A stretch of DNA of 53,475 nucleotides from Pedosphaera sp. (lineage in GTDB: Bacteria > Verrucomicrobiota > Verrucomicrobiia > Limisphaerales > F1-12-MAGs170), in the NCBI GenBank assembly GCA_009695275.1, contig SIBF01000004.1:1-53475 (forward strand), written 5' to 3'. Shown in pieces: positions 4,578-53,475 of the stretch. The position numbers and the translations under genes are program-made. The first letter of the stretch is position 1, and each line of letters opens with the position of its first letter. Under the pieces are notes generated by a model. It saw only the letters and a list, made by a program, of their open reading frames with translations. It searched no databases and was not told where the DNA came from.

Positions 4578-6632
4578 TCAATAGCTTCGCAGGTTCCATT
4601 CGTTGAGCAGCTCGGTCGGGAGCTCGCGGAGGAAGCGGGAGGGTTGTTGCATCATGTCACCACCGTAACCCGCTGAGGCACGAATCAGCGGATAGCTCAG
4701 GTAAAGTTCATTCTTCGCCCGTGTCACCGCGACGTAGAACAGCCGCCGTTCCTCCTCTTCGTTTTCGATCCGCTCCAACGAACGCGCAGAGGGAAACATT
4801 CCGTCGCACAGCATGATGAGGAATACGACGGAGAACTCGAGCCCCTTCGCCTGGTGAATCGTCGAGAGCTTGAGTTCTTCGTCATCTTTATTCTTCGGAC
4901 GTTCATCATCGGCTTCGATGTTCGAAAGAAGGGCAAGTTGCGTGAGGAATTCTCCGGCGGTTTTGAATTGCCGCGCAAAGGTCGCGAGTTGATCCAGATC
5001 TTCAAGGCGATTGCGGTAATTGGGAAAGTTCTCCTTGAGGTAATCCTCGTAGTTGGCTTCAACAGCGAGACGAATCACCTCGGCTGCGTTGGAGAAGACT
5101 GGCTCGGAGTCGAGTTGCGCCATGGTGATCGCGAACTGCGCCCACGCGACCGCGGTTTTCTTGCCCACGGCCGAAGAACAACCTTGCAGCGCGGTGCCGA
5201 GAATCGGGCGATGGGGCGGAGGCACTCCTTCCACCGAAGAGGGACGGGCCGGACTCGCCGCTTCAACTTTTGTCAGCTCGCCCAGAAATCTATGCCAGAG
5301 TTTATCCGCGCCCTTGCCGCCGACGCCCGGCAAAAGTCGGACGAGACGTTTGAACGAAAGTTCGTCGCGAGGGTTGTTGACCAGTTTGAGGTAGGCCGCC
5401 ACGTCCTTGACGTGGGCTTGCTCGAAGAACCGGATGCCGCTCGTGATGCTGAAGGGAATGTTGCGGCGGGTAAGTTCCAACTGAAGTTCGAGCGCGTGAA
5501 AGTGAGAGCGATAGAGGACCGCCATGTCGTTCAGACTGGCTCCCTCGTCGCGGAGTTCGAGCGCTCGTTGAGCGACGAAGGCAGCCTGCTCCGCTGCATC
5601 ACCGCAGACAACGAGCGCCGGAACCGGCCCTGTCTTGCGCGCGGGAACGAGCAGCTTGGCGAACTGTTGAACATTGGGCGCGATGGCGGCGTTGGCGAGC
5701 GAGAGGATCTCCGGCGTGCTGCGGTAATTCGTCTCGATCTTATAGACCTTCGCGGTCGGGTAGCGCTTTGGAAACTCAAAGATGTTTTGAAAGTTGGCGC
5801 CGCGCCACGAGTAGATGCTTTGCGAGTCGTCGCCGACAACCATGACGTTATGATGCCGCGCGCCAAGCAGATCAATGATGTCGCTCTGGAGTTTGTTGGT
5901 GTCCTGATACTCATCAACGAGGATGAATTGGAAGCGACGCTGGTAAAGTTCCAGCACGTCAGGAAAATCGTTGAGGAGCTTGAGCCAAAATACAAGAAGG
6001 TCATCGAAGTCCATCACGTTGGTCGATTGCTTTCGCTTTCGGTACTGTGCGTCGATCTGAATGATTTGTTCTGCGATCGGCTGGAAGCTCGAGTAATCCC
6101 CGGCGAGAATTTGCGGGATTGTCCGTTGCGTGTTCACCGCCATTGAAAAGACATCGTTCAACACTTCGGCCTTCGGAAATCGCGTCGCCTTCACATCAAT
6201 CCCGGCGTCATCCATGCAAGCTTTCAAAAGATCCTTGCTGTCCTCTCGATCCAGAATTGTGAAATCGGGCTTGTAACCGAGCTGGTCCGCGTGACGACGG
6301 AGGATTCGGTTGCCGATCGAGTGGAATGTTCCACCCCAGAGCGCCGTGATGTCGTTCCCCAGAATGTCCGTTATTCGTCGCATCATCTCCTTGGCCGCCT
6401 TGTTGGTGAACGTCAGGAGAAGAATACGTTCCGGGGGAATGCCCTGTTCCAGCAGATAGGCAACCCGGTAGGTGAGAGTGCGGGTCTTGCCGGAGCCGGC
6501 GCCGGCGATGACAAGCGATGGCCCCGGAAGAGCGGTGACGGCGGCGTGCTGTTGTGCGTTCAGCTCGCGGGCGTAATCGATTTGCAATTCGACCGGCGCG
6601 CTGAACGGTTGCAGCACATAATCACGAGACAT
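4578..6632 (-). CDS. UvrD/PcrA/Rep family ATP-dependent DNA helicase
   Basis: Walker A motif AGAGSGKTRTLTYRVAYLL, a DEYQDTN motif, and helicase motifs VGDDSQSIYSWRGA, TNYRS and C-terminal QAKGLEFSVVF. Start placed at MSRDYVLQ. Confidence 0.85.
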   Translation of the reverse strand: MSRDYVLQPFSAPVELQIDYARELNAQQHAAVTALPGPSLVIAGAGSGKTRTLTYRVAYLLEQGIPPERILLLTFTNKAAKEMMRRITDILGNDITALWGGTFHSIGNRILRRHADQLGYKPDFTILDREDSKDLLKACMDDAGIDVKATRFPKAEVLNDVFSMAVNTQRTIPQILAGDYSSFQPIAEQIIQIDAQYRKRKQSTNVMDFDDLLVFWLKLLNDFPDVLELYQRRFQFILVDEYQDTNKLQSDIIDLLGARHHNVMVVGDDSQSIYSWRGANFQNIFEFPKRYPTAKVYKIETNYRSTPEILSLANAAIAPNVQQFAKLLVPARKTGPVPALVVCGDAAEQAAFVAQRALELRDEGASLNDMAVLYRSHFHALELQLELTRRNIPFSITSGIRFFEQAHVKDVAAYLKLVNNPRDELSFKRLVRLLPGVGGKGADKLWHRFLGELTKVEAASPARPSSVEGVPPPHRPILGTALQGCSSAVGKKTAVAWAQFAITMAQLDSEPVFSNAAEVIRLAVEANYEDYLKENFPNYRNRLEDLDQLATFARQFKTAGEFLTQLALLSNIEADDERPKNKDDEELKLSTIHQAKGLEFSVVFLIMLCDGMFPSARSLERIENEEEERRLFYVAVTRAKNELYLSYPLIRASAGYGGDMMQQPSRFLRELPTELLNEWNLRSY

Positions 6633-39738: not shown

Positions 39739-42480
39739 TCAATTCACAAACACGAATTCATTGCTGTTGAACAGGAGCCGGCACAGGTTGGCCAGTCCAT
39801 GTTGCTTTGCGTAGGCCGACAATTCGCGCGCTTCATCGGCATCCGGTAAACGCCCCCAGGTCCACTCGCAAGCTTCGTTGATGCTATGTTCCAGACCGGT
39901 TGCCCCACGGTCGAGCTGCGAGGCAAAGTGTTCGGCATAGCGGACCGTGAAGGCACTGTTCCAAAGCGCGAGCGCTTGTTGCACAGTCACGGAGTTGTTG
40001 CGCACCGGGGCGAGTTGATCACCCGCCGGGCAGTCGAGCGCGTCCATCATCGGATCCGGCAAGGTGCGGAAAAGGAAACGATACACGCTGCGCCGGCGGG
40101 CCATGTCGCTATCCACGTCGAACTTTGTGTAATCGACTTTTGGCGTGACATGAATGCCTGGCTGCAGATCGAATTGCTGATCGCTCGGCCCACCCATGCG
40201 CAGCTCCAGCCGGCCGGACATGAGCAGAATGGCGTCACGCACCTCCTCGGCATCGAGCCGTGTGCGGTTCATGCGCGAGAGGTAGCGGTTGTCGGGATCA
40301 GTCGTGTCCAGTTTTCCAGCCGCCTGCCGGTAACTCGCGCTGGTAACGATCAATCGATGAAGCTTCTTCAACGAGCCCCCGGCGTCGTCACGGAACCAGA
40401 CTGCCAGCCAGTCCAACAACTCGGGATGAGTGGGTGCCGATCCCATGCGTCCGAAATCGTTGACTGTCTCGACAATTCCGCGCCCGAAATGAAGGTGCCA
40501 GATGCGATTGACGATGGAGCGCCACACAAATGGATTCTCGGGATGCGTGAGCCAGCGAGCCAGGGCCGCACGGCGGGGACCTTCGACCTTCGCATCAGCG
40601 ATTGCGAATTGACTCGGCAGCGCGCGCGCACAGGAGAGAGTGCCTGGAGATGCGAGTTCGAGAGGCTTCGTGATTTCGCCGCGCCGCAGCATTCGCACTT
40701 CTCGTGGAGCACCGGCAGGCTTGTGACTGGCGTCCGGGGGGAAATCACTCGCTCCGGCAAAGACCAGCGCAGGCTTTGGAAGCCGGGAGAGGTCGCGCGT
40801 GATCCGTTCGCGTGCGACGAACGTGGCGAGCTGCAAGCGCTGCTCTTCGGTGCGTTCGCGTGGGGCGATCTTCACGAGCTTGTCGATCGTCTCGGGAACG
40901 ATTCTTACGGGCACTGGCGCATCAGTGATTGCCAGCCGCAGGCGTCCGATCAGATGCCCTGCGCCATGAAGTTGTTTCAGCGTGATGACAAGCTTCGAGC
41001 CGTCCGGCACGGACGCGGCTTGAGCAAGTTCGAAAACAGCCTGGTGCGACTCACCTTCACGCGGATGAACTCCCCACGCGGTCTTCTCGTCGCTGTCCAG
41101 CGCGTGACGGATCGTCCATCCGTCCTGATCGAAATCCGAACTGGCGTTGGTGAGGGAGAGCACGCGCGGAACTTCCGCCCCGCGCTCAAACAGGAACGCC
41201 TGAAATTCGCTGAGGTGCAGGTTGCCATTTTCATTCCTGCCCGGCCCGCTCTTTGGCAGGCGCTCATCCGCCAGTAATTCGAGACGAATTGCCGTCAGTT
41301 TTGGCAGGCCAACGCTCGTGGTGATCGTGTAGGTGTCCCGCTCCGGACGCGTGCCACTGGCGAACAACGACGCGTCCGATTGCCGCTTCAACGTGGTCCC
41401 GTTGGCCGAGAGGAACGTCTCCGGTTCCAGGACTTGCCATGCCGGCGGGTGGTGCTGTTGTTCCTCCCAGTCGGCGACGTCGCGCGCCGCCGCATCACTC
41501 AACAGAAGCGCGCGGTCACCCTGAGCGGCGCGCTTCAAGAACTCCTGCAACTCGCGCCTGCGCTGGTGAACCGTCTGATCGGGATCGTAAAAGCGATTAG
41601 CCTTGTCGGTGCCGGCGAACACGGCTTGGAGCGCGTAATAATCCCGCTGCGGGATTGGATCAAACTTGTGATCGTGGCAGCGGGCGCATTGAACAGTCGT
41701 GCTGGTGAACGTCTGCATCACCGTCGTCACGATGTCATCCCGATCAATATAGCGGGCACTCTGGCGATCCAGGGTATCTTCGCGAATGTCACGCAACGAA
41801 CTTTCATCCCACGGGCCTGAGGCCAGCAGTCCCATCGCCACGATCCCTTGCGGGTCTTCAGGGAACAGCACATCCCCCGCGACCTGCTCCTGCACGAAGC
41901 GTGGGTAGGGTTTGTCCGCGTTGAACGCGCTGATCAGGTAATCGCGGTAAGGCCACGCGTTCGTGCGGATGCGATCCTGATCATGGCCGTGGGTCTCGGC
42001 GAAATGAACCGCATCCATCCAGAGCCGCGCCCAGCGTTCGCCAAAGCGCGGGCTTTCGAGCAGGCGGTCCACCAGCCGCTCGTAAGCGTTCGTTGAGGTG
42101 TCGTTGAGAAACGTGCTGATTTCTCCCGGCGAGGGTGGAAGACCCGTGAGGTCAAAAGAGACGCGGCGAATGAGTGTCCTCCCATCCGCTTCGCCTGCCG
42201 GCTTGAACCCCTTTTGGTCCAGCCTGGCCAGGATGAACTCATCAACCGGATTGCGTGCGGGGTTTCCCCCGGAACTTGCGAAAGAATGATTTTGAACCGC
42301 TGGTCTGACCAGCGGGCGAATGGCCCACCACTCATTGGTTTCAGTCGCACCGAGCCTTACCGCCAGCGAAAGGACGAGCCCGCAAAGAACCGGACTCCGT
42401 CGTTTGCGAATCACATGGCAAAGAAGCAAGCCAAGACCGTTCAACAACGAACGGAAGTTCAACCTGGCTGTCTGGGTCAT
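39739..42480 (-). CDS. PSCyt2/PSD1 (DUF1549/DUF1553) family protein, long form
   Basis: Motifs CARCHDHKFDP and YGERWARLWMDAVHFAETHG, with an extra middle domain of ~200 aa relative to the other two copies. Start placed at MTQTARL before the hydrophobic segment. Confidence 0.85.
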   Translation of the reverse strand: MTQTARLNFRSLLNGLGLLLCHVIRKRRSPVLCGLVLSLAVRLGATETNEWWAIRPLVRPAVQNHSFASSGGNPARNPVDEFILARLDQKGFKPAGEADGRTLIRRVSFDLTGLPPSPGEISTFLNDTSTNAYERLVDRLLESPRFGERWARLWMDAVHFAETHGHDQDRIRTNAWPYRDYLISAFNADKPYPRFVQEQVAGDVLFPEDPQGIVAMGLLASGPWDESSLRDIREDTLDRQSARYIDRDDIVTTVMQTFTSTTVQCARCHDHKFDPIPQRDYYALQAVFAGTDKANRFYDPDQTVHQRRRELQEFLKRAAQGDRALLLSDAAARDVADWEEQQHHPPAWQVLEPETFLSANGTTLKRQSDASLFASGTRPERDTYTITTSVGLPKLTAIRLELLADERLPKSGPGRNENGNLHLSEFQAFLFERGAEVPRVLSLTNASSDFDQDGWTIRHALDSDEKTAWGVHPREGESHQAVFELAQAASVPDGSKLVITLKQLHGAGHLIGRLRLAITDAPVPVRIVPETIDKLVKIAPRERTEEQRLQLATFVARERITRDLSRLPKPALVFAGASDFPPDASHKPAGAPREVRMLRRGEITKPLELASPGTLSCARALPSQFAIADAKVEGPRRAALARWLTHPENPFVWRSIVNRIWHLHFGRGIVETVNDFGRMGSAPTHPELLDWLAVWFRDDAGGSLKKLHRLIVTSASYRQAAGKLDTTDPDNRYLSRMNRTRLDAEEVRDAILLMSGRLELRMGGPSDQQFDLQPGIHVTPKVDYTKFDVDSDMARRRSVYRFLFRTLPDPMMDALDCPAGDQLAPVRNNSVTVQQALALWNSAFTVRYAEHFASQLDRGATGLEHSINEACEWTWGRLPDADEARELSAYAKQHGLANLCRLLFNSNEFVFVN

Positions 42481-42628
42481 GGTCGGGAGAATAGTCGCCA
42501 CACTTCCGCACGCAAGCACAGGCAATAGTCCTCGGCGACGGTCGAATGCTGCGGAGAACTCAATTTCTGATTGGTTCAGTTTAGAATTCCGCTTGCCAGA
42601 CACGCGTCCGGTGCCTACCAGAGACGGC

Positions 42629-44014
42629 ATGAACCGCCGTAAATTCCTCAAGCAAAGCTCCACCGTAATCGCCGCCGCTGCCGTCGCTTCCTATGTTCCC
42701 ACCACTTTCGCCGCCGGGAAGTCGATCCGCGTCGGCCTCATCGGCACGGGCTGGTACGGCAAGAGCAGTTTGCTTCGCGCCATTCAGGTAGCGCCGATCG
42801 AAGTCGTTTCGTTGTGCGACGTGGATAGCAAGATGGCTGGTGCCGCCGCCGACCTGGTGGCCACCCGCCAGCTTTCCAAGAAGAAGCCGCGCATCTACTC
42901 GGACTTCCGCAAAGCAATCGCCGAGAAGGATGTGGACATCATGATGGTCTCGACGCCAGACCACTGGCATGCCATTCCGGCCATCACCGCGATGCAGGCA
43001 GGGTTCGACGTGTATTGTGAGAAGCCGACCGGCGTGGATGTGGTTGAGAGCCAGTCGATGGTGGCCGCCGCACGGAAGTACAACCGCGTGATGCAGGTCA
43101 ACACTCAGCGCCGCAGCACGCCGCACCTGATCGAGGCAAAGGAGGAGATCATCAAGGCCGGTCTGCTCGGCAAAGTGCAGAAGGTCGAGATCGGGGTCTG
43201 GTGGCACATGCGCAACAACATGCCCGTTTCGGAGGCCCCGGACATCGCGCCACCGGAAGGATTCGATTACGAGATGTGGACCGGTCCGGCGCCAAAGCAG
43301 CCCTTCAACAAGATCATTCACTCGCGCGGCTGGCGGGCCTACATGGAATACGGCAACGGCATCGTCGGCGACATGTGTGTTCACATGTACGACATGACCC
43401 GCTGGTTGCTCGACCTCGGCTGGCCGAAGAGCATCACATCCTGGGGCGGCATCCTCAACGACCGCAATTCGCGCGCAAACATCACCGACACGCAGACGGC
43501 GATCTACCAGCACGACGACTTCGACGTGACGTGGAACCATCGCACCTGGGGCAAGTCGCCCGAGCCCGACCCTGACTTTCAATGGTTCGGCACGATCTAT
43601 GGCGAAAAAGGCGTCCTCAAGTGCAGCGTGTTCCGCTACGACTGGATTCCATATTCGTCCGGCAAGGTCGAGCGCACGCGCAAGGCGTTGTTCGAATACG
43701 ACAAGCACCCCGAGGACAAGGCGGAGGAGAAGGAATGGAATCTCGAAGGCCACGTGGCCTCCGCGATGCGCCGGCATTGGCTGAATTATCTCAACGCGAG
43801 AGAGAACCGCGGCAAGATTCTGCCCGTCGCCGACATCGAGCAGGCGCACATCTCCAGCTCGTCGTGCTTCCTGGCCAACCTTTCGCAGAAGCTGGGCCGC
43901 ACGCTCGAGTTCGATCCCGCCACGCATACGGTGAAAGGCGATGCCGAGGCGAACCGGCTGCTGGCCCGGCCTTACCGCACACCTTGGGTCCACCCGACCC
44001 CGGACAAAGTCTGA
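42629..44014 (+). CDS. Gfo/Idh/MocA family oxidoreductase, Tat-exported
   Basis: Tat leader MNRRKFLKQSSTVIAAAAV and Rossmann GLIGTGWYG. A CEKP motif. Confidence 0.85.
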   Translation: MNRRKFLKQSSTVIAAAAVASYVPTTFAAGKSIRVGLIGTGWYGKSSLLRAIQVAPIEVVSLCDVDSKMAGAAADLVATRQLSKKKPRIYSDFRKAIAEKDVDIMMVSTPDHWHAIPAITAMQAGFDVYCEKPTGVDVVESQSMVAAARKYNRVMQVNTQRRSTPHLIEAKEEIIKAGLLGKVQKVEIGVWWHMRNNMPVSEAPDIAPPEGFDYEMWTGPAPKQPFNKIIHSRGWRAYMEYGNGIVGDMCVHMYDMTRWLLDLGWPKSITSWGGILNDRNSRANITDTQTAIYQHDDFDVTWNHRTWGKSPEPDPDFQWFGTIYGEKGVLKCSVFRYDWIPYSSGKVERTRKALFEYDKHPEDKAEEKEWNLEGHVASAMRRHWLNYLNARENRGKILPVADIEQAHISSSSCFLANLSQKLGRTLEFDPATHTVKGDAEANRLLARPYRTPWVHPTPDKV

Positions 44015-44048
44015 TCAAACACCAGAGCTCCTCTTAGCCGTAATTACC

Positions 44049-44193
44049 CAGTTGAAATGGAGAGCGCGGTCGTCTCGACCGCTGTTCTCGGCGTCTCGCC
44101 GAGAACTCAGTGGGCGTGACCAGTCACCAGAGGGTGGGTTTCCGGAGCGGACGAGCTGGTCAGCGAGACGCTGACCAGGGCGTGCGAGACGCA
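44049..44193. repeat. intergenic REP-like composite palindromic element (GGAGAGCGCGG…CGCGCTCCCC termini, four inner hairpins with TCTC/AGAC loops)
   Basis: Four hairpins read directly: GCGGTCG-TCTC-GACCGC, GTTCTCGGCG-TCTC-GCCGAGAAC, CTGGTCAGCG-AGAC-GCTGACCAG and GCGTGCG-AGAC-GCACGC. Located between convergent genes, where it could act as a terminator. Confidence 0.8.
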
Positions 44194-44219
44194 CGCGCTC
44201 CCCAATTGCGACTGAATAG

Positions 44220-45362
44220 TTACGGTTTAGTCGCTGAATTGCTGAAGCGGGGATTCCAAAATCGGCGTTCTATGAACCGGTGAAACAAACTGCCAAGCAG
44301 GATCGTTACGCCCACGCAGCAAGGAATCCGTAGTAGCAGAATCCCCATCGGGGTGTCGGCACCAGACGAATCAAAGGCATGCCCCACGAGCCGCACCACC
44401 GGCCAATGCACCAGATAAAGGCTGTAGCACATTAGTCCCAGAAAACGCAGTGGAGATAGAATCTGAAGGTTATACGCGGTGCCGTCCCATCGCTTCAGTC
44501 CGAGGATCAGCAGGGCGTAGGAAAATGCCGCCAGGTACGCTTGATTGAGTGGAAGCCGGAGTTGTCGCAAGTCTGGCACTGCCCACAGGATGCCGACCAC
44601 AAGCGGGAGACAAAACCAACCCCATCTTCGCAAGGGGACGTAATTCGAAACGTAATAGACCAGAACTCCCGAAGCGAACATCAGCCATTGACCATCGAGA
44701 AACAGGCCCTCCGTGCGCAACGTTCGCAGTGGAAACAGAACCAGGACGGTTACGATCAGCGTCACCAAACTCAGTGCATGAAAGAAAAATCGGCGCGTGA
44801 CGACCAACGCCAAACCTACCAGGAAATAGAACTGCTCTTCGAAACACAGCGTCCACGAAGGCGGCAGCAGGGGGTTTTCAGAGCCGCCAGTCAGATGCCA
44901 TCGCCAGGTTTCGGTCAGACTCAAATTCCCAAGCCACTGCCATCTCTTCAGTGATTGTGGCGGCGGGACGCCAAGAGCTTCAAAATAGCTCGCAGGAAGA
45001 AACCCCTCAGACAGCCATGCGAACAAGGCTGTCATAGCAAGCGCAGCCCAGAATGGCGGGTAAATCCGCCGGAAGCGTCGCCAGAAGAAAAACTTTGCCG
45101 CGCCAGGTTCCGATCGTAATAGGTCCGCCGATGCCGTGACGCAGTAGCCGCTGATCACAAAGAAGAGTGGAACTCCAATCCAGCACTTTCCCAGGATCGC
45201 AAAGATGCCAGCAGTCACGCCGCTGGTCTCCTGGAGCGGACTTCGCGCGGAATGATAAACGACGACGAGAAGGCAAGCAAAGCCCCGCCACAACGTCAGT
45301 GAGTCATAGCGAACTCGTGAGTGTGTTTCTCCGGCATTCTGCCTTTGGTCTTCCAGCTGCAA
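44220..45362 (-). CDS. acyltransferase family 3 (OafA-like) membrane O-acyltransferase
   Basis: N-terminal YDSLTLWRGFACLLVVVYH, the acyltransferase-3 signature, and about 10 TM helices. Confidence 0.8.
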   Translation of the reverse strand: MQLEDQRQNAGETHSRVRYDSLTLWRGFACLLVVVYHSARSPLQETSGVTAGIFAILGKCWIGVPLFFVISGYCVTASADLLRSEPGAAKFFFWRRFRRIYPPFWAALAMTALFAWLSEGFLPASYFEALGVPPPQSLKRWQWLGNLSLTETWRWHLTGGSENPLLPPSWTLCFEEQFYFLVGLALVVTRRFFFHALSLVTLIVTVLVLFPLRTLRTEGLFLDGQWLMFASGVLVYYVSNYVPLRRWGWFCLPLVVGILWAVPDLRQLRLPLNQAYLAAFSYALLILGLKRWDGTAYNLQILSPLRFLGLMCYSLYLVHWPVVRLVGHAFDSSGADTPMGILLLRIPCCVGVTILLGSLFHRFIERRFWNPRFSNSATKP

Positions 45363-45454
45363 ATCGTTTCACTCCACACACCGTGCGATAATCGGGCGAA
45401 AAGCCTTGCCAGCGGGGCCGTTTCTGACGCTCAACAGTGCCCGGTGAGAGAAAC

Positions 45455-48400
45455 TCACGCCAGGAGTGCTTTGGCCTTTGCCAACGCCTCGTCCAGCTTG
45501 CCCGGATCCTTGCCGCCACCGCGTGCGTTGTCGGGTTTGCCGCCGCCTTTGCCACCGACGATGGGGGCGATCTGCTGGATGATCTTTCCGGCCTGCACCT
45601 TCGCGGTGAAGTCCGGTGAGACGGAGGCGACCAGTGAGACGGCGTTGTTCGCTGCCCCACCGAGGACGATAACACCCTTGAACCGGCTCTTAAGCGCATC
45701 CACCACGGCTTGGAGATAATCCGCGTCGCCATCGGGGAAACCCTGCGTGATGAGCGGGATGCCGTTGACCGTCTCCGACCGGGTGAGCAACCAGGCCGCG
45801 GTCTGCGCCGCGTTTCGGGCGATGGACGTCTTGAGCGCCTTCTCCGACTCCTTCTGCTGCGCGAGCAGGCTCTCGACTTTCTTCTCCAACTCGGCGACGG
45901 GGGAATTCAACTTTCCCGCGACGGTGCGAAGGAGGTGAAGTTGCTGGTTCGCGAGTTCGTAAGCGGTGAGGCCGGCAACGGCTTCGATACGGCGCACGCC
46001 GGCAGCAATGGCGTTCTCGCTCACGATGCGGAACAGGCCAATCTCGCCTGTCGCACGGGTGTGGGTGCCGCCGCAGAGTTCCATTGAGTAACCATCCAGT
46101 TTGTTCGCCGCGCCGCCGATCTGGACGACGCGTACGGTGTCGCCGTATTTGTCGCCGAAGAATTGCATCACGTCCTTGCGCGATTTCACGTCGGCGTAGG
46201 GGACTTCGGTCCACGAGACGCCGGTGTTTTCAAGAATGCGTTCGTTGACGAGTTTCTCGATGTCGGCAACCTGCGCGGGTGTAAGCGGCGCGCTGTTGAA
46301 GTCGAAAGTCAGCTTGTCCGGGCCGACGAATGAACCTTTTTGCGACGCTTCCTGGCTTACGACTTCGTGCAGCGCCCAGTGGAGCAAGTGCGTGACGGTG
46401 TGGTGACGTTGGATGGCACTGCGGCGTTCGTGATCGACGGTGAGAAGGACTTCCGAACCGACAATTGGCAGCGCGTCGCCAGACGCGCTGGGAGCGCGAC
46501 CGTCCCGGTCGCCCTGCTGCGCGTCTCGCGCAGCAGATCGGTGGGGGTGGAAAACGAGAAACGTTGAGGAACTCGCGGCACCCTCGCGCGGGGAATCGGT
46601 CGGCGAGACGCCGACCGATGCGACCGGGACGGTCGCGCTCCCCTCTTCGATGAAATGGAGCCAGGTGTTGCCGGATTTTTGCGTGTTGGTGATGCGCCAG
46701 AGCTGGCCGCCGCCATTCAATTCGCCGGTGTCACCGACCTGGCCGCCCATCTCGGCGTAGCAGGCGGAAGCATCGAGGATGACAGCGGTCTTGTCCTTGA
46801 GCGAGACGACCTCCAGGACTTTGGCTTGGACGGCGAGGTGCTCGAAGCCGACGAACTTCGTGGGTGTCGTGGTCTCGATTTTCGAAAGTGAAATGACTTC
46901 CTTCTTCTGCGCGGCACGGGCGCGGGCGCGCTGCTCTTTCATCAGCTCTTCAAAGCCCTCCACGTCCACCGTCAGGCCACGTTCGCGCGCCATCAACTCG
47001 GTGAGGTCGAGCGGGAAGCCCTGCTCGTCATAAAGCCGGAACGCGAACGCACCTGAGATTTGGGCAGGGATGGCTTGGGGAGCGCGCCCGCCCCGGGCGC
47101 TGTTTCCCGCGCCCTCGCGGGAAACGGTCGGGCGTGGGACGTCACCGGACGCCGAGATTTCATTGTGCGTTCCCGAGCCGCCCGGGGCGGGCGCGCTCCC
47201 TGGCGCATCGGGAGTCCACAGCCAGCGATAATTCTCCGACGAGGGAACCACGGCGTTGTCCCAGGGATTGCGGCAGATGTAATGAAACTTCTCTTCCAAG
47301 TCCGAGTCGCCTCGCATCAGGCGGTCAAAAAAATCTTCCTCCCAAATATGAACTCCAGAGACCTTGGCCGCTTTGTTGATCTTGTGTGCGGTCGTGGACT
47401 TGATTCCGTGGAGGATTTCTCCGAGCGGATAAAAGACCGGTTTGCCGTCTTTGTCTTGCTCCTTGATTTGGGGTTCGAACAGCAGGTGAACATGGTCGGG
47501 CATCACGCGCGCGGCAAAAAGTTGATACTGCCGATGGGTGTGAGCATAGAGAACGCTCTCCAGCACGATGTCGCGCTCGGCCGGAGTGAGTTGCCGTTTC
47601 TCTCGCGTGGAGAAGGTCACCATGTATTTGCCCCAGGGTCGTTCGAAATGCGGCAGGCGTCTTTTGGAATAGGTAGCACCGGGGTTGTCGGACGCTCTGG
47701 GGCCGACCGCGAGGGCGCGGTCGGCTGCGCCCGGGGCGGGCGCGCTCCCCATCACCAATGGAAGCGGCGATCCCGCAGTCATGTGTGTCTTGTTTCCAAG
47801 TGTAATTCGAGCGGGACCACCCTGAATCAGACTCGCTTCCTCGTTGAAGAGCGCGATACCTTTGTCGAGCGTCTTGTTAAACGCCTCCTCCTCACGCTGG
47901 ATGACCTCCTGCACATGGGCTTTCCGGGCGCGAATTTCAGGGAAGACATCGCCCATTGTGTCGGCGAGCACGTCCACGAGCTTGTAGAAGAACGGTTGGT
48001 GGAAGCCGAGCGTGCGGCCGTAGCGCACGGCGCGGCGCAGGATGCGGCGGAGGACGTAGTTGCGGTCGGTGTTGCCGGGTTGGATGCCGTCGGCAATCGC
48101 AAACGAGAGCGTGCGGATGTGATCGGCAATAACCCGGAAGGCGATATCGAGCGCGATTTGCTCCGCACCATGGGCAGCGCGACCGTCCCGGTCGCTCTGT
48201 TGCGCGTCTCGCGCAACAGCCCCGGGGGTGTGGGAAGCGAGAGATGTTGAGGAACTCGCGGCACCCTCGCGCGCGGAATCGGTCGGCGGGACGCCGACCG
48301 ATGCGACCGGGACGGTCGCGCTCCCCGTCGCTTCGCGACGTAGCTTTTCCTCGGTCGCAGCGTCGGGTGTCCAGAGCCATCGATAGTTTTCCGTGGATGG

Positions 48401-49867
48401 CGCGACGCCGGAATCCCACGGGTTGCGGCAGATGTAGTGGAACTTCTCTTCGAGATCGGCGTCGCCACGAATCATGCGGTCGAACGATTCGTTCTCCCAC
48501 ACTTGGCCCGTGGTGTTTTCCGCCTTGTTGATCTCGTGGGCGGTGAACGATTTGATTGAGTGCATCAACTCGGACAGCGGCCAGAACACGGGCTTGCCTT
48601 CCTTGTCCTCCTCTTTGATCTGCGGCTCGAACAGGAAATGAACGTGATCGGGCATGACGCAGGCGGCATACATCTGATAGCGGCGCTGATCGTGTCCGAA
48701 AAGGAGGCTCTTGAGCACGATGTCCTGCGCTTGCGGCGAAAGCTGACGACGCTCGCGCGTTGTGAAACTAACCATGTATTTCGCCCACGGATGCTCGAAG
48801 TGCGGAAGGCGGCGCTTGTAGTAGGTAGCTTGAGGAGCGCGACCGTCACGGTCGCTCTGCTGCGCGTCCCGCGCGGCAGATCCGGGAGCGTGGGAAGCAG
48901 ATGATGCCGTTGGACTCGTCGCGCGCGTGGGATCGGGCGGCGGGACGCCGACCGGGGCGACCGGGACGGTCGCGCTCCCCGCTCCCTGCGGGAGTGTGCT
49001 GCCATAGCGTTTTCCACTCATTGCTTCCAGCGCGTCGAAGATCGGCCGAAAGATGTCGGTTTCATAGTTGGAGATTCTGGCGTTGGCGAAATCGGTCAGA
49101 CCCTTTGTGCCCTGCATGATGCTCGTGACGCGCTCGAAGCCCATGCCCGTATCCACGTGCTGGGCAGGCAACGGGGAGAATGTGCCGTCCGGGTTCGCGT
49201 TGAACTGGATGAAGACCAGGTTCCAGATCTCGATGCAGCGGGCGTCGCCTTTGTTGACAAGTGAACCCTTGGTGTCGCCAGCGGGCGTCAAATCAACGTG
49301 CAGTTCGGAGCAGGGACCGCATGGCCCGGTCTCACCCATCATCCAGAAGTTGTCTTTCTTGTTGCCGTTGACAATGTGGGCGGCGGGATCGAGGCCGACG
49401 CTGCGGAACTTTTCGGCCCAGAAGTTCCATGCTTCCTCGTCGCGCTCGGCAGGATCACCAATGGATTTGTCCGGATTGTAAATCGTGGCATAGAGCCGTT
49501 GGGGCGGAAATTTCCAGACACCGATAACCAATTCCCACGCCCACTCAATAGCCTCTTTCTTGAAGTAATCGCCGAAGGACCAGTTGCCGAGCATTTCGAA
49601 GAACGTGTGGTGGTAGGTATCAAGGCCGACGTCGTCGAGGTCGTTGTGCTTGCCGCCGGCGCGGATGCACTTCTGGGTGTCGGCGGCGCGGCCGGGTGTG
49701 TAGGGGCACCTGGTCTGGCCGAGGAAGATGGGCACGAACTGGTTCATGCCGGCGTTCGTGAACAGGAGGTTCGGCGAATCGGGCATTAGCGAGGACGATG
49801 GGACGATGGAGTGCTGCTTCGACTTGAAGAAGTCGAGAAACGACTGGCGGATTTGCGAACTCGTCAT
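45455..49867 (-). CDS. alaS: alanine–tRNA ligase (AlaS) carrying three in-frame mobile-element-derived insertions (1471 aa)
   Basis: N-terminus [50 protein letters not shown], tRNA-recognition block [37 protein letters not shown], editing-site [31 protein letters not shown], and C-Ala tail [16 protein letters not shown] are all collinear with AlaS. The roughly 600 extra residues map to three discrete stop-free inserts listed as separate features. Confidence 0.85.
   Translation of the reverse strand: [1470 protein letters not shown]
46484..46645. repeat. solo REP-like palindrome inserted in frame in alaS (~53 codons) just upstream of the editing-domain HxxxH region
   Basis: GGAGCGCGACCGTCCCGGTCGC…CTGCGCG-TCTC-GCGCAG…CGGTCGGCG-AGAC-GCCGACCG…GCGACCGGGACGGTCGCGCTCC. 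Translated as [54 protein letters not shown], between …WLHFIE and [17 protein letters not shown]. Confidence 0.8.
47075..47749 (-). mobile_element. second REP–RAYT–REP module in frame in alaS, 225 codons, ~70% identical RAYT core, variant REP termini
   Basis: Core [26 protein letters not shown]…[13 protein letters not shown]…[16 protein letters not shown]…YRWLWTPDA. Flanks GGGAGCGCGCCCGCCCCGGGCG… are GC-variant relatives of the first REP. The right flank is a 129-bp perfect palindrome encoding GSAPAPGG…RGGRAPQ. The insert lies in the helical tRNA-binding domain between …EEASLIQG and [13 protein letters not shown]. Confidence 0.8.
48173..48979 (-). mobile_element. REP–RAYT–REP module (IS200/IS605-like Y1/HuH transposase, TnpA_REP type) inserted in frame in alaS, 269 codons
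   Basis: Flanked by two ~160-bp palindromic REPs with GGAGCGCGACCGTCCCGGTCGC…GCGACCGGGACGGTCGCGCTCC termini, translated as GSATVPV…RDGRAPQ. The core is [26 protein letters not shown]…[13 protein letters not shown] (HuH) …[15 protein letters not shown] (catalytic Tyr) …YRWLWTPDA. It has no stop codon of its own and reads in the alaS frame. The insert sits between the aminoacylation and tRNA-recognition domains. Confidence 0.8.
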
Positions 49868-50077
49868 TCGTTGAAATGTTAAATCGTTAAATTGTGAACC
49901 GTAAAATCTTTGCCGCGAAAGAACGCAGAGAACACAAAGAATTCTTCCGCAACAAGGCGGGGAAACTAGCCGAAACCGTCCACGAGAGGCGAGTGGAAGT
50001 TTTGGCCCTTTTGGAGGTTCCACTGAAGAGGCAAGCGTGCCCGGCAGCCTTTTCCGACAAAACAGCCGGAAGAGTAT

Positions 50078-50740
50078 TCAGGGCATGAAACGGGGGGGAG
50101 GTGCTTTCACGAACGTCGTCGCGCGGAGATAGATGGGTTCAAGCAGCTCTCCTGGCAGGAAGTTGCTTCGCGTAACCGCGAGCTGACCGATGGCAGATGC
50201 GGCTGGCTCAACGTCGTGTGCTGATTGGAATTTTGCGGATAACCCCGGTCCGAAAAGACCACATTGATCACCGAGCAGAGAGTCGAGTTGTTCACGAGAC
50301 TTGAGGTTCATGGCTTCGATAATCGCGATGGTATTCGGGAAAATGTTCAACAAGGTCACGTAGAATTCACCTCGCTGCGCATCAATGGCGATTCGCACTT
50401 TGTCCCGGAGGCCTCTTTGCTGGAGTTGAAATGCGATGGCGTCAGCGCTGCCAACGCCTTGGAGTTTCAGACCTGTCGCCAGTTGCCAGCCCTGGGCGAT
50501 GGAGATGGCTGCCCGGATGCCGGTGTAGGAACCAGGTCCGAGTCCAACCACGATCTCACTTATCTCGCCGCGTTTGAGCCCGGCAACTCCAAGCGCGTTT
50601 TGTATCAACGCCAGCGGACGCACATTGCGATCCCCGGCATCGGCGGCTTCTCCCAGGATCTTCGCGGCACTGTCGCCATTGGCGGAAAGGATCGCCGCGC
50701 TCCGGATATTTCCTGAGAATTCGAGCGCCAATGTGATCAT
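50078..50740 (-). CDS. tsaB: tRNA threonylcarbamoyladenosine biosynthesis protein TsaB (YeaZ)
   Basis: MITLALEFSGNIRSAAIL…VVGLGPGSYTGIRAAISIAQG. Start chosen at MITLAL, 4-bp overlap with tsaE. Confidence 0.8.
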   Translation of the reverse strand: MITLALEFSGNIRSAAILSANGDSAAKILGEAADAGDRNVRPLALIQNALGVAGLKRGEISEIVVGLGPGSYTGIRAAISIAQGWQLATGLKLQGVGSADAIAFQLQQRGLRDKVRIAIDAQRGEFYVTLLNIFPNTIAIIEAMNLKSREQLDSLLGDQCGLFGPGLSAKFQSAHDVEPAASAIGQLAVTRSNFLPGELLEPIYLRATTFVKAPPPRFMP

Positions 50741-51192
50741 GCTTTTCCTGGTTTGATGCCCGTCTCGTCCGGCGTTGTAACGGTGATCCTGCGTTCTGTT
50801 TCGCCCAGAGTTTCGAGCACGACACGCACGAAATCTCCGGGCAATGGACCATTCCAGCGTTCGATCCATTCGATCAAGGCAATACCGTCCGGTTCGAGAT
50901 ATTCGACAAGTCCCGCGCCTATGATTTGAGCATCCGAATCCAGCCGGTAGAAATCAATATGGTGGAGCGGCAGACGTCCGCTGAAGTAGGTATTCAGCAG
51001 GGCGAATGTCGGAGATTGAACACGTTCCTTAACGCCAAGTCCGCGGGCAAAACCTCGTGCAAATTGCGTCTTGCCGGCTCCAAGATCGCCGCTCAGACCG
51101 ATCACGGTGCCCGCTGGCAATATTCCAGCAAGATCGTGCGCGATCGCTTCCGTCTCGGAAGGGCTACGAGAAATGTGTGTAACCGCTGACAT
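50737..51192 (-). CDS. tsaE: tRNA threonylcarbamoyladenosine biosynthesis ATPase TsaE (YjeE)
   Basis: P-loop GDLGAGKTQFARGFARGLG and SPTFALLNTY. Confidence 0.8.
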   Translation of the reverse strand: MSAVTHISRSPSETEAIAHDLAGILPAGTVIGLSGDLGAGKTQFARGFARGLGVKERVQSPTFALLNTYFSGRLPLHHIDFYRLDSDAQIIGAGLVEYLEPDGIALIEWIERWNGPLPGDFVRVVLETLGETERRITVTTPDETGIKPGKA

Positions 51193-52129
51193 TCAGTGGA
51201 CGCAGGCCGAACTTGTCCTGGAGGCGCAAGCCTGGTTTGACGGTGATCTTGCCTACGCACGAGATTTTGAGCGTCGAAAATCTTTGCTTCCAAGCGTCAA
51301 GCAGTGGAACAGCATCAGCGCTCCCGACGGTGAAGAGCAACTCGAAGTCCTCGCCGTCGGTTAATGCGGCGAGCAGCGCCTGGCCGGATGTGTCCACTTC
51401 GATCTCCAGGTTTCCTTTGCCAGGCAGTGCGGTGCGCGCTTTTTGCCGGGCTGCGCGGCTGACCGGAATGGCGCGGCCAAGCAGTTCGGCACCGACACCG
51501 CTACTCTGAAGAATATGGCGCAGATCCCCGGCGATGCCGTCGCTCAGATCCATCATGCTGTGGATGGAGAAGTTTTCCGCCAGCCACCGCGCCTCGGTAA
51601 GGCGCGGCTCGAAGTCGAGATGTTTGCCAAGAATCGAACCGCCCAACTCGCCTGTAACGAAAATGACGTCGCCTGGTTTGGCACCTGCCCGGAGAATCAT
51701 ACGATTCTTTGGCAGCACTCCCGTGACAGTCACGGAAATGAAGATGCGTTCCGGATTGCAGGTGGTTTCTCCGCCGACGATCGCGATGCCGTGTCGTTCG
51801 GCGAGAAGGCGCATCCCGGCGTACAGACCATCGATCCACTCAGGGTCGAAGCCTGGAGGCAAGCCCAGTGTGACCATCGCGTGTCTCGGAGTGCCGGCCA
51901 TGGCGGCAAAATCGCTGAGGCATCGACCGAGCGCTTTGTGCCCGACGCGCGGGGCTTCTGTTTCCGCGGTGAAATGGACGCCCTCGACCACGGCATCTGT
52001 TTTCAACAGCAGAAATTCGCCGGCCAGGCCGATATCCACGACCGCGCAATCGTGGCCTGCGCCGGCAATGACCGAGGAGTTGGTCGGGAGATTGGGAATC
52101 AGCCGTTGGATCAGATCAAACTCGGTCAT
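51164..52129 (-). CDS. thiL: thiamine-monophosphate kinase
   Basis: MTEFDLIQRL…GHDCAVVD…LLKTDAVVEGVHF…DFAAMAGTP…DLSDGIAGDL, AIR-synthase-related fold with ThiL motifs. Confidence 0.85.
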   Translation of the reverse strand: MTEFDLIQRLIPNLPTNSSVIAGAGHDCAVVDIGLAGEFLLLKTDAVVEGVHFTAETEAPRVGHKALGRCLSDFAAMAGTPRHAMVTLGLPPGFDPEWIDGLYAGMRLLAERHGIAIVGGETTCNPERIFISVTVTGVLPKNRMILRAGAKPGDVIFVTGELGGSILGKHLDFEPRLTEARWLAENFSIHSMMDLSDGIAGDLRHILQSSGVGAELLGRAIPVSRAARQKARTALPGKGNLEIEVDTSGQALLAALTDGEDFELLFTVGSADAVPLLDAWKQRFSTLKISCVGKITVKPGLRLQDKFGLRPLNVSGYTHFS

Positions 52130-52149
52130 TGTGAGAGATTCCTGGAGGC

Positions 52150-52866
52150 TCAGGCTCCGGGTGAAAGTGCCACCCGCAGAAAGTTCACAAGGTTGAAGAA
52201 GGCGTGCATGACGATTGAACTTAGCAGGTTGTTGGTGCGCTCGTAAACAAAGGTGAGCATCAGAGCCAGCACGGTGAATGGAAGGATGGTCATTCGATTA
52301 CTATGGATCACCGCGAACAATAGCGACGTGCCCCAAAGCGCCATGCGCGGAAAACCCAACTGCTTGACCGATGGATAGAGGATGCCGCGAAAGACAATCT
52401 CCTCCGCGACCGGTGCCAGGATGACAGCCGCAAAAAAGATCGTGACACTCAAAGGCCAGCCCGGCTGTTTTTGAAGCATTTGCACGGGAGCCTGCAGCTC
52501 CGTCTTCATGCCCAGCAATTGGAAAATAATTGCGGAGAGTTCGCCCAGTCCAATGATCAGCGGGAGAGTGATGACACCGATCAATATTCCGAAGCCCGCC
52601 GCCCGCCACATTCGCGGCGTTGAGAAACCGAAGGCCAGCCCGCTGCCTGTTCCGTGCTCGCGCAGCAGCCATGGTAAAAGCGCAAGGACCACTCCATGAA
52701 AACTCAATGTGCCGCCGATGATCGTGGCATAGTCCTCCGGCACCCGGATCGGCGCATGTTCTGAGGTGAACCACGCCACAAGCAACATGCCGCCGCAAAA
52801 GCCCGCCATCACCAGAAGCAGATACTGCAAGACGATGTCCATCCGCCATGGTTTCTCCGATAACAT
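52150..52866 (-). CDS. CPBP family intramembrane glutamic endopeptidase (CAAX protease-like)
   Basis: EEIVFRGILYP (EExxxR), FAVIHS and HAFFN motifs on a multi-TM scaffold. Confidence 0.8.
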   Translation of the reverse strand: MLSEKPWRMDIVLQYLLLVMAGFCGGMLLVAWFTSEHAPIRVPEDYATIIGGTLSFHGVVLALLPWLLREHGTGSGLAFGFSTPRMWRAAGFGILIGVITLPLIIGLGELSAIIFQLLGMKTELQAPVQMLQKQPGWPLSVTIFFAAVILAPVAEEIVFRGILYPSVKQLGFPRMALWGTSLLFAVIHSNRMTILPFTVLALMLTFVYERTNNLLSSIVMHAFFNLVNFLRVALSPGA

Positions 52867-52958
52867 CCGGCGGAAACTAAGCAGCGGCTTCGTGAGTTAC
52901 GATGGAAAAATGAGGTTGGCGCTGATTGCCGAAGGCTCTTATCCGAATCCATGCAACA

Positions 52959-53130
52959 GGAGCGCGGAATTCATTCCGCGTGGATCCTGCAAGGCCCCAA
53001 GGGCTGTAGGCTCGACGACATGCCAAGTGATCAAAAACCAGGTCATAGGAAAGTGACCAACGCGAAAAGCAATTTGCCGCGGCCGAAATCTCCGGCCAAA
53101 GTGGGAATTCCACGCGGCTGCGGAATAAAT
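52959..53130. repeat. REP-like nested inverted repeat element (GGAGCGCGGAATTCATTCCGCG…CGCGGAATAAATTCCGCGCTCC)
   Basis: 20-bp terminal inverted repeat with 1 mismatch. An inner pair CCGCGTGGAAT/ATTCCACGCGG. Shares the GGAGCGCG terminus with the alaS REPs. Confidence 0.65.
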
Positions 53131-53295
53131 TCCGCGCTCCTATTGAATTGTTCCGCATGTCCGCTGCGAGGCCTCCCCCAATTGACTTACACTCGGTGAA
53201 GTAATGAAAGACAAGCTGTTTTGACTGGCTGTCCCTTCGAACGATGCTTTCGCCACCGTAAAGCCCATCGTTGATGGAATGAAGGACTCTCACCG

Positions 53296-53475
53296 CTTTT
53301 CCATTGAGGGCGCGCTCCCAACCTTGAACCTTGAACCTTGAACCTTGAGTCGAGTAGGTCTCCGCGCGGAGAGGCGTCAGGTGGGAAAGAGAGCTGACCG
53401 CGGAGACTTACTCGACTGTTGGACGAAGCCTAGTCGCGGCTCCCTTATGGGAAAAGTAACGTCCGAGGCCGACTG
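53296..53475. repeat. repeat cluster: …GGCGCGCTCCC terminus, 4× AACCTTG tandem, and 20-bp inverted repeat GAGTCGAGTAGGTCTCCGCG/CGCGGAGACTTACTCGACTG with GTCTC/GAGAC cores
   Basis: Read directly. Runs to the window edge, so possibly truncated. Confidence 0.55.

Follow-up and report, generated by a model that had tools for sequence, protein, structure and literature searches.

In-frame REP-RAYT-REP modules within alaS of a Pedosphaera contig and within other housekeeping genes of Verrucomicrobiota

Contig SIBF01000004.1 of Pedosphaera sp. (assembly GCA_009695275.1) was analyzed over a stretch of 53,475 nucleotides, referred to here as the window, in which an initial annotation had noted a family of repetitive extragenic palindromic (REP) sequences both between genes and within alaS, the gene for alanyl-tRNA synthetase (AlaRS). 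We found that this alaS contains two REP-associated tyrosine transposases (RAYTs), each lying between REPs and each continuous with the reading frame of the synthetase. The explanation we favor, at a probability of roughly 75%, is that the RAYT is a passenger domain of AlaRS which is translated through with its host and which mobilizes dispersed REP doublets. The evidence comes from the anatomy of the gene, conservation of the reading frame, covariation within the REP hairpins, purifying selection and the fold of the transposase.

The alaS coding sequence occupies 45455-49867 on the minus strand and encodes 1470 amino acids plus a stop codon. It lies within an uninterrupted minus-strand open reading frame (ORF) of 1522 codons (45455-50023; probable start at 49867) that holds AlaRS and both RAYTs in one frame. 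AlaRS itself accounts for 923 amino acids in four segments separated by three in-frame inserts, and the Pfam matches on the product are tRNA-synt_2c in three stretches, tRNA_SAD, DHHA1 and, in two stretches, the IS200-like transposase family Y1_Tnp. Insert 1, at alaS site 1 (48170-48979, minus strand; 810 nt, residues 297-566), consists of a REP doublet, a RAYT and another REP doublet. The RAYT-1 core (48356-48829, minus strand; residues 347-504) contains the HUH motif PDHVH and the Tyr motif FHYICRNPW; the doublet on its N-terminal side (48830-48982) encodes the linker GSATVPVAPVGVPPPDPTRATSPTASSASHAPGSAARDAQQSDRDGRAPQ, and the doublet on its C-terminal side lies at 48170-48328. Insert 2, at alaS site 2 (47075-47749, minus strand; 675 nt, residues 707-931), has a REP singlet on the N-terminal side of its RAYT (47692-47752, minus strand; 46 bits with the covariance model described below) and a doublet on the C-terminal side (47075-47203; 56.7 and 27.7 bits), in which the second hairpin of the inner unit is degenerate. 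Its RAYT-2 core spans 47201-47677 on the minus strand (residues 731-889) and is 70% identical to RAYT-1. Insert 3, at alaS site 3 (46487-46642, minus strand; 156 nt, residues 1076-1127), is a solo REP doublet in frame, delimited at 46487-46645 by the covariance model. Similar to Rickettsia palindromic elements (RPEs), this 52-amino-acid segment is a palindromic in-frame repeat that is absent from the homologues in L008, L073, L023, L026 and L052.

The length of each insert is a multiple of 3, and all three are on the alaS strand and free of stop codons in the alaS frame. Both RAYTs share this strand and frame, and each lacks a start and a stop codon of its own. The REP head is read as GG(G/T) AGC GCx, giving Gly-Ser-Ala, and the opposite end as CGC GCT CCC, giving Arg-Ala-Pro. 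If read in the opposite orientation, the intragenic doublets at 46489-46643 and 48172-48326 have a stop in the head frame. Because single doublets are open by composition alone with a chance of 0.3-0.6, the window by itself is suggestive and no more. The density of repeats near alaS had been taken as a local hotspot, a view that does not hold: what is found there is two REP-RAYT-REP modules and one solo doublet, in frame within the alaS coding sequence.

A covariance model, proposed earlier as a check on the family, was built from a seed of 114 REP units that included the 11 units of the window. Scanning the whole 53 kb, the model placed these 11 units in five inverted doublets and one singlet spanning 44057-48982, with E-values from 1e-3 to 8e-11 for units that belonged to the seed, and the two stem-loops covary. 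Since the window units seeded the model, the informative part of the scan is the absence of any match in positions 1-43000. For the core of the family, the earlier observation is thus confirmed. Additionally, its terminus motif GGGGAGCGCG, allowing at most one mismatch, occurs 22 times in the window versus 10.6 expected, a count reached in 0 of 100 shuffles. Two units are outside genes and nine are inside alaS. The latter had been listed as three REPs plus variant flanks, which was right about the presence of REPs in alaS and wrong about their number, as there are four doublets and one singlet.

Repeat finding and motif listing gave the same order in each unit: the head GGGGAGCGCG, then hairpin 1, then hairpin 2. 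Hairpin 1 has a 7-bp stem with compensating changes in its inner four bases (ACCG/GGTC, CCCG/GGGC, GTCG/GACC and TGCG/GCAC), and hairpin 2 has a stem of 10-11 bp and a loop of 3-5 nt. The variable position of the head, GG(G/T)AGC, is G in 103 and T in 17 of 120 flanking units (GGAG or GTAG, respectively), and the outer ends follow the consensus T-Y-Y-G-GG(G/T)AGC. The canonical head of RAYT-associated REPs is GTAG (PMC3733652), which is what the T variant yields, and a GTAG-like tetranucleotide stands at the foot of the hairpin. The pyrimidine pair outside the head appears, by analogy, to recall the CT cleavage site of E. coli TnpA-REP (PMC3479197). The five doublets of the window are 125-155 nt long and are inverted pairs, the arrangement of REP doublets forming hairpins (REPINs). 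These repeats are REP/REPIN elements and no chance pattern.

The transposase domains of the window match Pfam Y1_Tnp with an E-value of 3.7e-13. The HUH motif PDHVH and the motif F-x-Y-I-x-R-N-P-W, of the Y-x-x-x-N-P type, occur in RAYT-1 and RAYT-2 and are kept by about 83 of 85 relatives; in the aligned motif of 85 RAYTs, the tyrosine is kept in all but 2 copies. A model of the RAYT core made with AlphaFold2 (AF2) has a predicted local distance difference test score (pLDDT) of 87.7 and a predicted template modeling score (pTM) of 0.83. Its top Foldseek match in the PDB is 4er8_A, E. coli TnpA-REP with a REP hairpin (E-value 2.9e-6, TM 0.65/0.62), followed by the weaker matches of IS200, IS608 and ISDra2 TnpA (TM 0.50-0.55). 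A sequence-profile search of the PDB with the RAYT alignment gave zero matches, so that kinship with 4ER8 comes from fold comparison only. The embedded domains are RAYTs, with a predicted fold closest to that of TnpA-REP. TnpA-REP acts as a monomer, whereas the IS200/IS605 enzymes are dimers (PMC3479197), which makes activity of a RAYT as an internal domain plausible. The REPs flanking the RAYTs are inverted, their heads facing away from the transposase at either end; this holds for the window and for most of 80 related loci. With two Y1_Tnp domains between REPs and TnpA-REP as the best structural match, the earlier proposal that these REPs are candidate RAYT substrates is supported. A test for association with free-standing RAYT genes had also been proposed. 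The association with RAYTs is there, but a free-standing, single-copy RAYT gene with its own start and stop is not found in the window; both copies are embedded in alaS.

To place the window among its relatives, one genome per species of the Genome Taxonomy Database (GTDB) was scanned with the RAYT alignment, and the best 80 loci were analyzed. All are from metagenome-assembled genomes (MAGs) of Verrucomicrobiota (Limisphaerales, Chthoniobacterales/Udaeobacter, Akkermansiaceae and Ereboglobus) save L014, labelled Bifidobacterium, and L019, labelled Acidobacteriota, both of which are apparently mis-binned. The RAYT is embedded in frame at a fixed site of a host gene in 71 of the 80 loci and is free-standing, with no host site, in 9. 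The host is alaS in 35 loci (site 1 or site 2; L007 carries both, like the window), recG in 18 (one site), metH in 10 (two sites), thrS in 7 (one site) and priA in 1 (one site). Host frame and RAYT frame agree on both sides of the embedded copies, giving single ORFs of 560-1660 amino acids, the exceptions being a few long-read assemblies with frameshifts. Four long-read assemblies (L001-L004), in which alaS is split by frame changes and a RAYT is seen inside alaS, were excluded from the frame analysis.

Within alaS, site 1 corresponds to position ~263/264 of the tRNA-synt_2c profile and is occupied in 11 further Limisphaerales loci. At site 2 (Pfam profile position ~375/379), 25 loci carry an insert; they belong to Limisphaerales, Chthoniobacterales, Akkermansiaceae and Ereboglobus. 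Site 3 is empty in L008, L073, L023, L026 and L052, and other REP-like inserts are found there in L005-L007, L015 and L018. The alaS genes of L014 and L073 have extra short inserts in the catalytic domain (alignment columns ~270-300 and ~410-460), and the one in L014, GGDASSPKGGGSAPASGSAPGAAQPLVE, has a REP-encoded look. These sequences suggest that insertions are tolerated in alaS at more sites than the three occupied in the window.

Protein databases gave a similar picture. The nearest 120 homologues of the window AlaRS are all 1084-1408 amino acids long, versus ~900 for an insert-free enzyme; many carry both PF01411 and PF01797, and many bear the name 'alanyl-tRNA synthetase/REP element-mobilizing transposase RayT' from the Joint Genome Institute (JGI) pipeline. 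Matches to the RAYT query are mostly proteins of ~205 amino acids named 'REP element-mobilizing transposase RayT', together with joined AlaRS-RAYT and MetH-RAYT fragments. A hidden Markov model search covered 1.84 billion representative proteins, one per 50%-identity cluster, and 37 of the best 150 RAYT matches were longer than 400 amino acids. Pfam scans of 30 of these 37 revealed hosts including AlaRS, RecG, PriA, ValRS, PurH, DnaK, BirA, a PFL-like glycyl-radical enzyme and a DNA methylase. The scanned proteins have the order palindrome-encoded peptide, RAYT, palindrome-encoded peptide, and in most the RAYT match starts well inside the protein.

Several further arrangements were observed. 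Distant RAYT subfamilies of the 'RNLPHW...TYFVTFRL' type occur inside ValRS (P0203, P0242 and P0256), PurH (P0234, P0249 and P0224), DnaK (P0266), BirA (P0213), the glycyl-radical enzyme (P0139) and the DNA methylase (P0221); in the DnaK protein, palindrome-encoded GAGVPPASPG...RRDACPT is found on both sides of the RAYT. A ValRS-like ORF at L106:5832-9131 holds two REP units. Paralleling alaS of the window, a single MetH ORF carries two RAYT modules in L034 (4819-9807) and in L032; one separates the homocysteine-binding domain from the pterin-binding domain, and the other precedes the activation domain. In an Akkermansiaceae MAG, a second, distant RAYT-like ORF with 34-40% identity (L080:1589-1864, minus strand) lies ~3 kb upstream of a RAYT-bearing alaS; therefore, more than one RAYT lineage can coexist in one genome.

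The nine free-standing RAYTs (L031, L033, L035, L037, L050, L056, L060, L068 and L084; at ~5850-6570 in most) have both REPs inside the ORF. Their start is an ATG (6 of 9) located 5-20 codons upstream of the left head, and their stop codon lies 2-10 codons past the right head. From these sequences, REP-encoded N- and C-terminal tails seem to be general to the RAYT family, whether embedded or free.

Covariation was measured in the 114 flanking REP units, drawn from all host genes, over 18 pairs in two helices. Of all cells, 83.6% are paired versus 63.3% in shuffles, and the covariation score is 0.536 versus 0.174 when shuffled (a value reached by 0 of 500) and 0.10-0.15 in slid controls. Hairpin 1 was used to select the units and its 98% pairing is thus inflated, while hairpin 2, which was unfiltered, shows changes in both partners at 10 of its 11 pairs. 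As in other REPs, the stem-loops are kept by compensatory changes.

The encoded proteins are also under selection. The ratio of nonsynonymous to synonymous substitution rates (dN/dS) of embedded RAYTs is 0.03-0.12, with internal stops in none; RAYT-1 gives 0.07, and RAYT-2 gives 0.03-0.06 against L007, L011 and L015. Because the AlaRS host segments have a dN/dS of 0.09-0.15 versus relatives, alaS is not decaying. REP-encoded linkers consist to 85% of G/S/A/P/T/R/D/E/Q while hydrophobic or aromatic residues make up 3%. AF2 modeling of residues 1-1075 gives the four linkers a pLDDT below 50 (residues 292-348 and 514-565 on the two sides of RAYT-1) and essentially no regular secondary structure, and both RAYTs score ~77-96, mostly 85-96. 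The catalytic domain of AlaRS was modeled too poorly, from a shallow alignment, for RAYT-AlaRS packing to be read. REP DNA is thus predicted to encode disordered linkers rich in Gly, Ser, Ala and Pro.

Comparison of RAYTs with their hosts points to movement. RAYTs at different alaS sites are separated by distances of 0.09-0.12, versus 0.16-0.23 for the host AlaRSs, and the site-1 RAYTs of L011 and L014 are 88-90% identical to the site-2 RAYT of the window, at distances of 0.10-0.12 as against 0.16-0.20 between the host AlaRSs. The correlation between RAYT and host distances is moderate (Spearman 0.48 at site 2 and 0.26 at site 1). With cross-site RAYTs closer than their hosts, a single ancient, frozen insertion was rejected as the sole history; it would therefore appear that modules have been exchanged between sites or genomes, or homogenized by gene conversion. 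A neighbor-joining tree of 85 RAYTs (155 amino acids) groups them partly by host gene and partly by bacterial order; at this sequence length its resolution is too low to tell gene conversion from re-invasion.

Copies also occur away from these loci, as the initial annotation had anticipated. An exact 23-mer covering the head and hairpin 1 is present in metagenome contigs from soil and peat, with at least 127 units in at least 120 contigs. Among the matches listed (127 units), 115 are not close to any RAYT or known host gene, ~90 are in no ORF of at least 300 amino acids, and 66 have an inverted partner; doublet lengths have modes at ~100-110 and ~140-150 nt with no bias toward multiples of 3. 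Judged by sequence, these copies look like a dispersed population of non-autonomous REP doublets. In the 800 kb of the 80 loci, 34 units lie away from RAYTs, versus 11 in a shuffled control.

The one REPIN-like doublet of the window that lies between genes spans 44057-44205, with units at 44057-44116 (plus strand; 56.7 bits) and 44146-44205 (minus strand; 65.2 bits). The copy had been reported at 44049-44193; it exists, but those limits are ~10 nt off. It is bounded by GGAGAGCGCG on the left and CGCGCTCCCC on the right, and each arm forms two hairpins, the inner ones having the TCTC and GAGA(C) loops described before. The doublet does lie between convergent genes, a GFO/IDH/MocA oxidoreductase gene ending at 44014 (plus strand) and an acyltransferase_3 gene ending at 44220 (minus strand). 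Folded as single-stranded DNA, it reaches -52 kcal/mol (z = -6.6). Read in the head frame, it runs into a stop codon in either orientation, and its length is not divisible by 3. It had been suggested that intergenic copies double as transcription terminators. However, a hairpin followed by a T-run was found at zero sites in 43500-45000, versus a mean of 2.5 in shuffles, and a canonical terminator role is unsupported because no T-run follows the hairpins. A scan of 43000-53475 against Rfam (E-value <= 1) identified no group I or II intron and no other family besides MIR918, a plant microRNA precursor, matched to the intergenic doublet (44026-44235) at 30.9 bits, below the gathering score of 268; this match was rejected as a false positive that arises because the doublet forms a long hairpin.

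These observations can be joined in a mechanism. The repeats would be the recognition hairpins, with a head that is mostly GGAG, of a RAYT specific to Verrucomicrobiota, that is, of an HUH/Y1 single-strand DNA transposase. The REP-RAYT-REP module, lacking its own promoter, start or stop, is carried in frame on the coding strand of housekeeping genes, and it would survive only if it has landed on that strand, in frame, and in a tolerant loop of an indispensable gene. We infer that ribosomes read through the module to give an AlaRS of ~1470 amino acids that retains the inserts in its mature form, with the REP DNA read as disordered linkers that abound in Gly, Ser, Ala, Pro and Arg, from which each RAYT would loop out of a surface or inter-helix loop and fold independently. 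The niche would benefit the RAYT, as its expression would be paid for by the host gene, and imprecise loss would kill alaS and so shield the module from deletion. If active as a nuclease, the RAYT would bind REP hairpins on single-stranded DNA and mobilize REP doublets, among them the one between genes (44057-44205) and the one standing alone at alaS site 3, and may occasionally move or convert whole modules between permissive sites. With somewhat less confidence, though we still think it probable, we extend this account to an HUH/Y1 lineage that gave up autonomous expression and persists, still moving, as in-frame passengers in alaS, thrS, valS, metH, recG, priA, purH, dnaK and birA. Its recognition hairpins would double as linker coding sequence, and it would resemble an intein without splicing.

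Several points weigh against read-through of a passenger RAYT that spreads REP doublets. Translation of the inserts is deduced from the sequence itself. As mRNA, the insert-3 doublet would fold at -112 kcal/mol (z = -10.3), and ribosomes would have five such structures to unwind in an essential message. Overall, AF2 modeled the fusion poorly (mean pLDDT 60.5, shallow alignment), so that the low linker scores are weak evidence of disorder. Because an embedded RAYT served as the reference for ranking the best 80 loci by similarity, the embedded fraction, 71 of 80, may be inflated. In addition, 124 of the 158 REP units in the 800 kb of these loci are within 320 nt of a RAYT; because most units are RAYT flanks, the spreading of REP doublets by the RAYT is only indirectly supported. 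Lastly, the frame across the C-terminal junction would be kept equally if the insert were removed after translation. Such removal, intron- or intein-like and acting after transcription or translation, would leave a mature AlaRS without the insert and release the RAYT. It would suit the intein-like niche of fixed sites in aminoacyl-tRNA synthetases, RecG, PriA, MetH and DnaK, and the terminal inverted REPs would bring the junctions together in RNA; in-frame continuity is likewise required by protein splicing or proteolytic release. We nevertheless consider removal unlikely. Pfam (E-value <= 0.01) finds no Hint/intein domain, and the Rfam scan that identified no self-splicing intron speaks equally against an intron fused to an insertion sequence (IStron). 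The junctions also lack intein nucleophiles: the inserts start with Gly-Ser-Ala and end in ...APQ/A, ...AAH/G and ...APS/A in the window, and elsewhere in ...ALP/T, G or I and ...ATQ/S. Removal as RNA, moreover, would need no stop-free, frame-keeping REP segments on the C-terminal side.

The other explanations fare worse than removal. The repeats could be ordinary extragenic REPs, acting as terminators or mRNA stabilizers and clustered near alaS by chance, as the stable fold of the doublet between convergent genes and the location of the exact 23-mer, mostly outside long ORFs among the metagenome matches listed, would allow. Yet 9 of the 11 window units are inside the alaS ORF flanking RAYT domains, where the reading frame contradicts this account, and the concentration of units around RAYTs in the related loci argues against it as well; with no T-run near the one intergenic copy, which is at most the single case it would fit, we regard it as improbable. 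Still less likely is a RAYT domesticated for a host function in AlaRS, such as nucleic-acid binding or regulation, and no longer mobile. Purifying selection is stronger on the RAYT than on AlaRS and the insert is fixed in all close relatives, both consistent with domestication, and two reports describe RAYTs in general as single-copy, vertically inherited, domesticated transposases (PMC5581495; bioRxiv 10.1101/2022.05.22.493013). However, the unrelated hosts AlaRS, ThrRS, ValRS, MetH, RecG, PriA, PurH, DnaK and BirA argue against a host-specific role, the catalytic HUH/Tyr residues and flanking REP hairpins are maintained, and modules are exchanged between sites faster than their hosts diverge. 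We give the least credence to alaS being a pseudogene broken by transposons, its long ORF an accident of high GC and a second alaS doing the work. In its favor, the analysis of this genome covered the 53-kb window, beyond which an insert-free second alaS may lie, and the composition of a doublet can by itself leave the frame open, as noted above. Against decay stand the insert lengths, all multiples of 3, the shared strand and frame of both RAYTs, the low dN/dS of the AlaRS segments, an architecture intact in 35 independent genomes, and the inserts present in all of the nearest 120 AlaRS homologues.

Two further copies had been listed near the right end of the window. The first, at 52959-53130, is weakly related to the family and a doubtful member: it is part of a divergent inverted-repeat doublet (52957-53142, or by wider limits 52955-53145) with the head GGAGCGCG and a 7-bp first hairpin, GCGGAAT...ATTCCGC, and this element scores 16 bits (E-value 0.17) with the covariance model. 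Its first hairpin differs from that of the family, its second hairpin is absent, and the hairpin variant has no other occurrence in 1.5 Mb of related loci. The second, from 53296 to the end, was rejected as a member. It shares only an 11-nt head-like fragment; at 53311-53420 this fragment, GCGCGCTCCCA, is followed by (AACCTTG)x4 and then by a long palindrome with ~20 bp in each arm (GAGTCGAGTAGGTCTCCGCG ... CGCGGAGACTTACTCGAC) and no relation to the REP family. A pair of the AACCTTG heptamers was found once more, in metagenome locus L145, and the palindrome nowhere else in related loci. Elsewhere in the window, a PSCyt2/PSD1 ORF (DUF1549/DUF1553; 39739-42663, minus strand) and the GFO/IDH/MocA ORF (42320-44014, plus strand) overlap by ~340 nt on opposite strands, and one of them probably starts further in. 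Both families are typical of the Planctomycetes-Verrucomicrobia-Chlamydiae (PVC) group and agree with an origin in Verrucomicrobiota.

Inteins with homing endonucleases are selfish elements translated within essential hosts such as synthetases and helicases; they occupy few fixed sites, have no expression signals of their own, and use a DNA endonuclease to spread. The module described here resembles an intein in the kinds of hosts, the fixed sites, the encoded nuclease and the missing expression signals. In contrast, it has no Hint domain or conserved splice residues, its nuclease is of the HUH/Y1 type that acts on single-stranded hairpins, and there is no sign of removal. IStrons of Clostridia join a group I intron to an IS200/IS605-family element, and RNA self-splicing restores the host message. 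They too are elements of the IS200/IS605 superfamily that neutralize the damage of insertion into a gene, but no intron was found here, and inserts that keep the frame and avoid stops point to read-through translation. IS200/IS605 TnpA proteins (IS608 and ISDra2) share the HUH/Y1 fold and the subterminal hairpins with a short guide or head sequence; they differ as obligate dimers of autonomous elements with their own ORFs, and their structural match is weaker (TM 0.50-0.55 vs 0.65).

The closest relatives are REP/REPIN-RAYT systems (4ER8, PMC3479197; Pseudomonas, PMC3116915; GTAG REPs, PMC3733652). Like them, the family described here has REPs whose hairpin foot bears a GTAG-type head on the 5' side and which pair as inverted doublets, and its HUH/Y1 transposase, of TnpA-REP-like predicted fold, is enclosed by inverted REPs; among the metagenome matches listed, copies also look dispersed and mostly extragenic. 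Here, however, the transposase is embedded in 71 of 80 loci and the REPs lie inside the ORF and are predicted to be translated, even the free copies reading through their REPs; additionally, two RAYTs can occupy one gene, GGAG heads outnumber GTAG heads, and a second hairpin of 10-11 bp belongs to every unit. In-frame intragenic REPs are known and are most abundant in the verrucomicrobium Opitutus terrae (PMC3733652), and in-frame RPEs were reported by Ogata et al. 2000, as cited in that paper. Such repeats are in-frame palindromes of 20-80 amino acids in conserved genes (tRNA synthetases, DNA repair and replication) and are thought to be tolerated in loops. Insert 3 is an ordinary member of this class. 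The published cases are all short, non-autonomous repeats, whereas here the transposase itself is in the host frame, at sites conserved across orders. REP/RAYT systems, REP doublets, GTAG heads and in-frame intragenic REPs were known already; the transposase itself embedded in housekeeping genes appears to be new. We searched the literature on RAYTs and Y1-HUH transposases in connection with host genes, aminoacyl-tRNA synthetases, inteins and in-frame insertion and found no account of embedded RAYTs. The fusion is public through automatic annotation, in the JGI names, and the phenomenon seems to be undescribed. A survey of Y1 proteins discarded 'unexpectedly long' ones as fusions or annotation errors (PMC6006769), and surveys that drop overlong Y1 proteins would have lost exactly the embedded RAYTs.

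In the usual picture of a REP/RAYT system, extragenic hairpins are accompanied by one free-standing, domesticated transposase gene. A transposase with its hairpins in the coding sequence of essential genes, found phylum-wide, departs from that picture. If read-through is true, it would be a third harmless way for a mobile element to reside in a gene, beside intron and intein splicing, and the same sequence would be constrained both to form a DNA hairpin and to encode a peptide linker. Most Verrucomicrobiota would then make AlaRS, ThrRS, RecG, PriA or MetH with a built-in, active single-strand DNA nuclease domain. There may be effects on genome stability and on delivery of the nuclease, as RecG and PriA act at replication forks with exposed single-stranded DNA, and the embedded modules would offer a testable system for how a RAYT is expressed and restrained.

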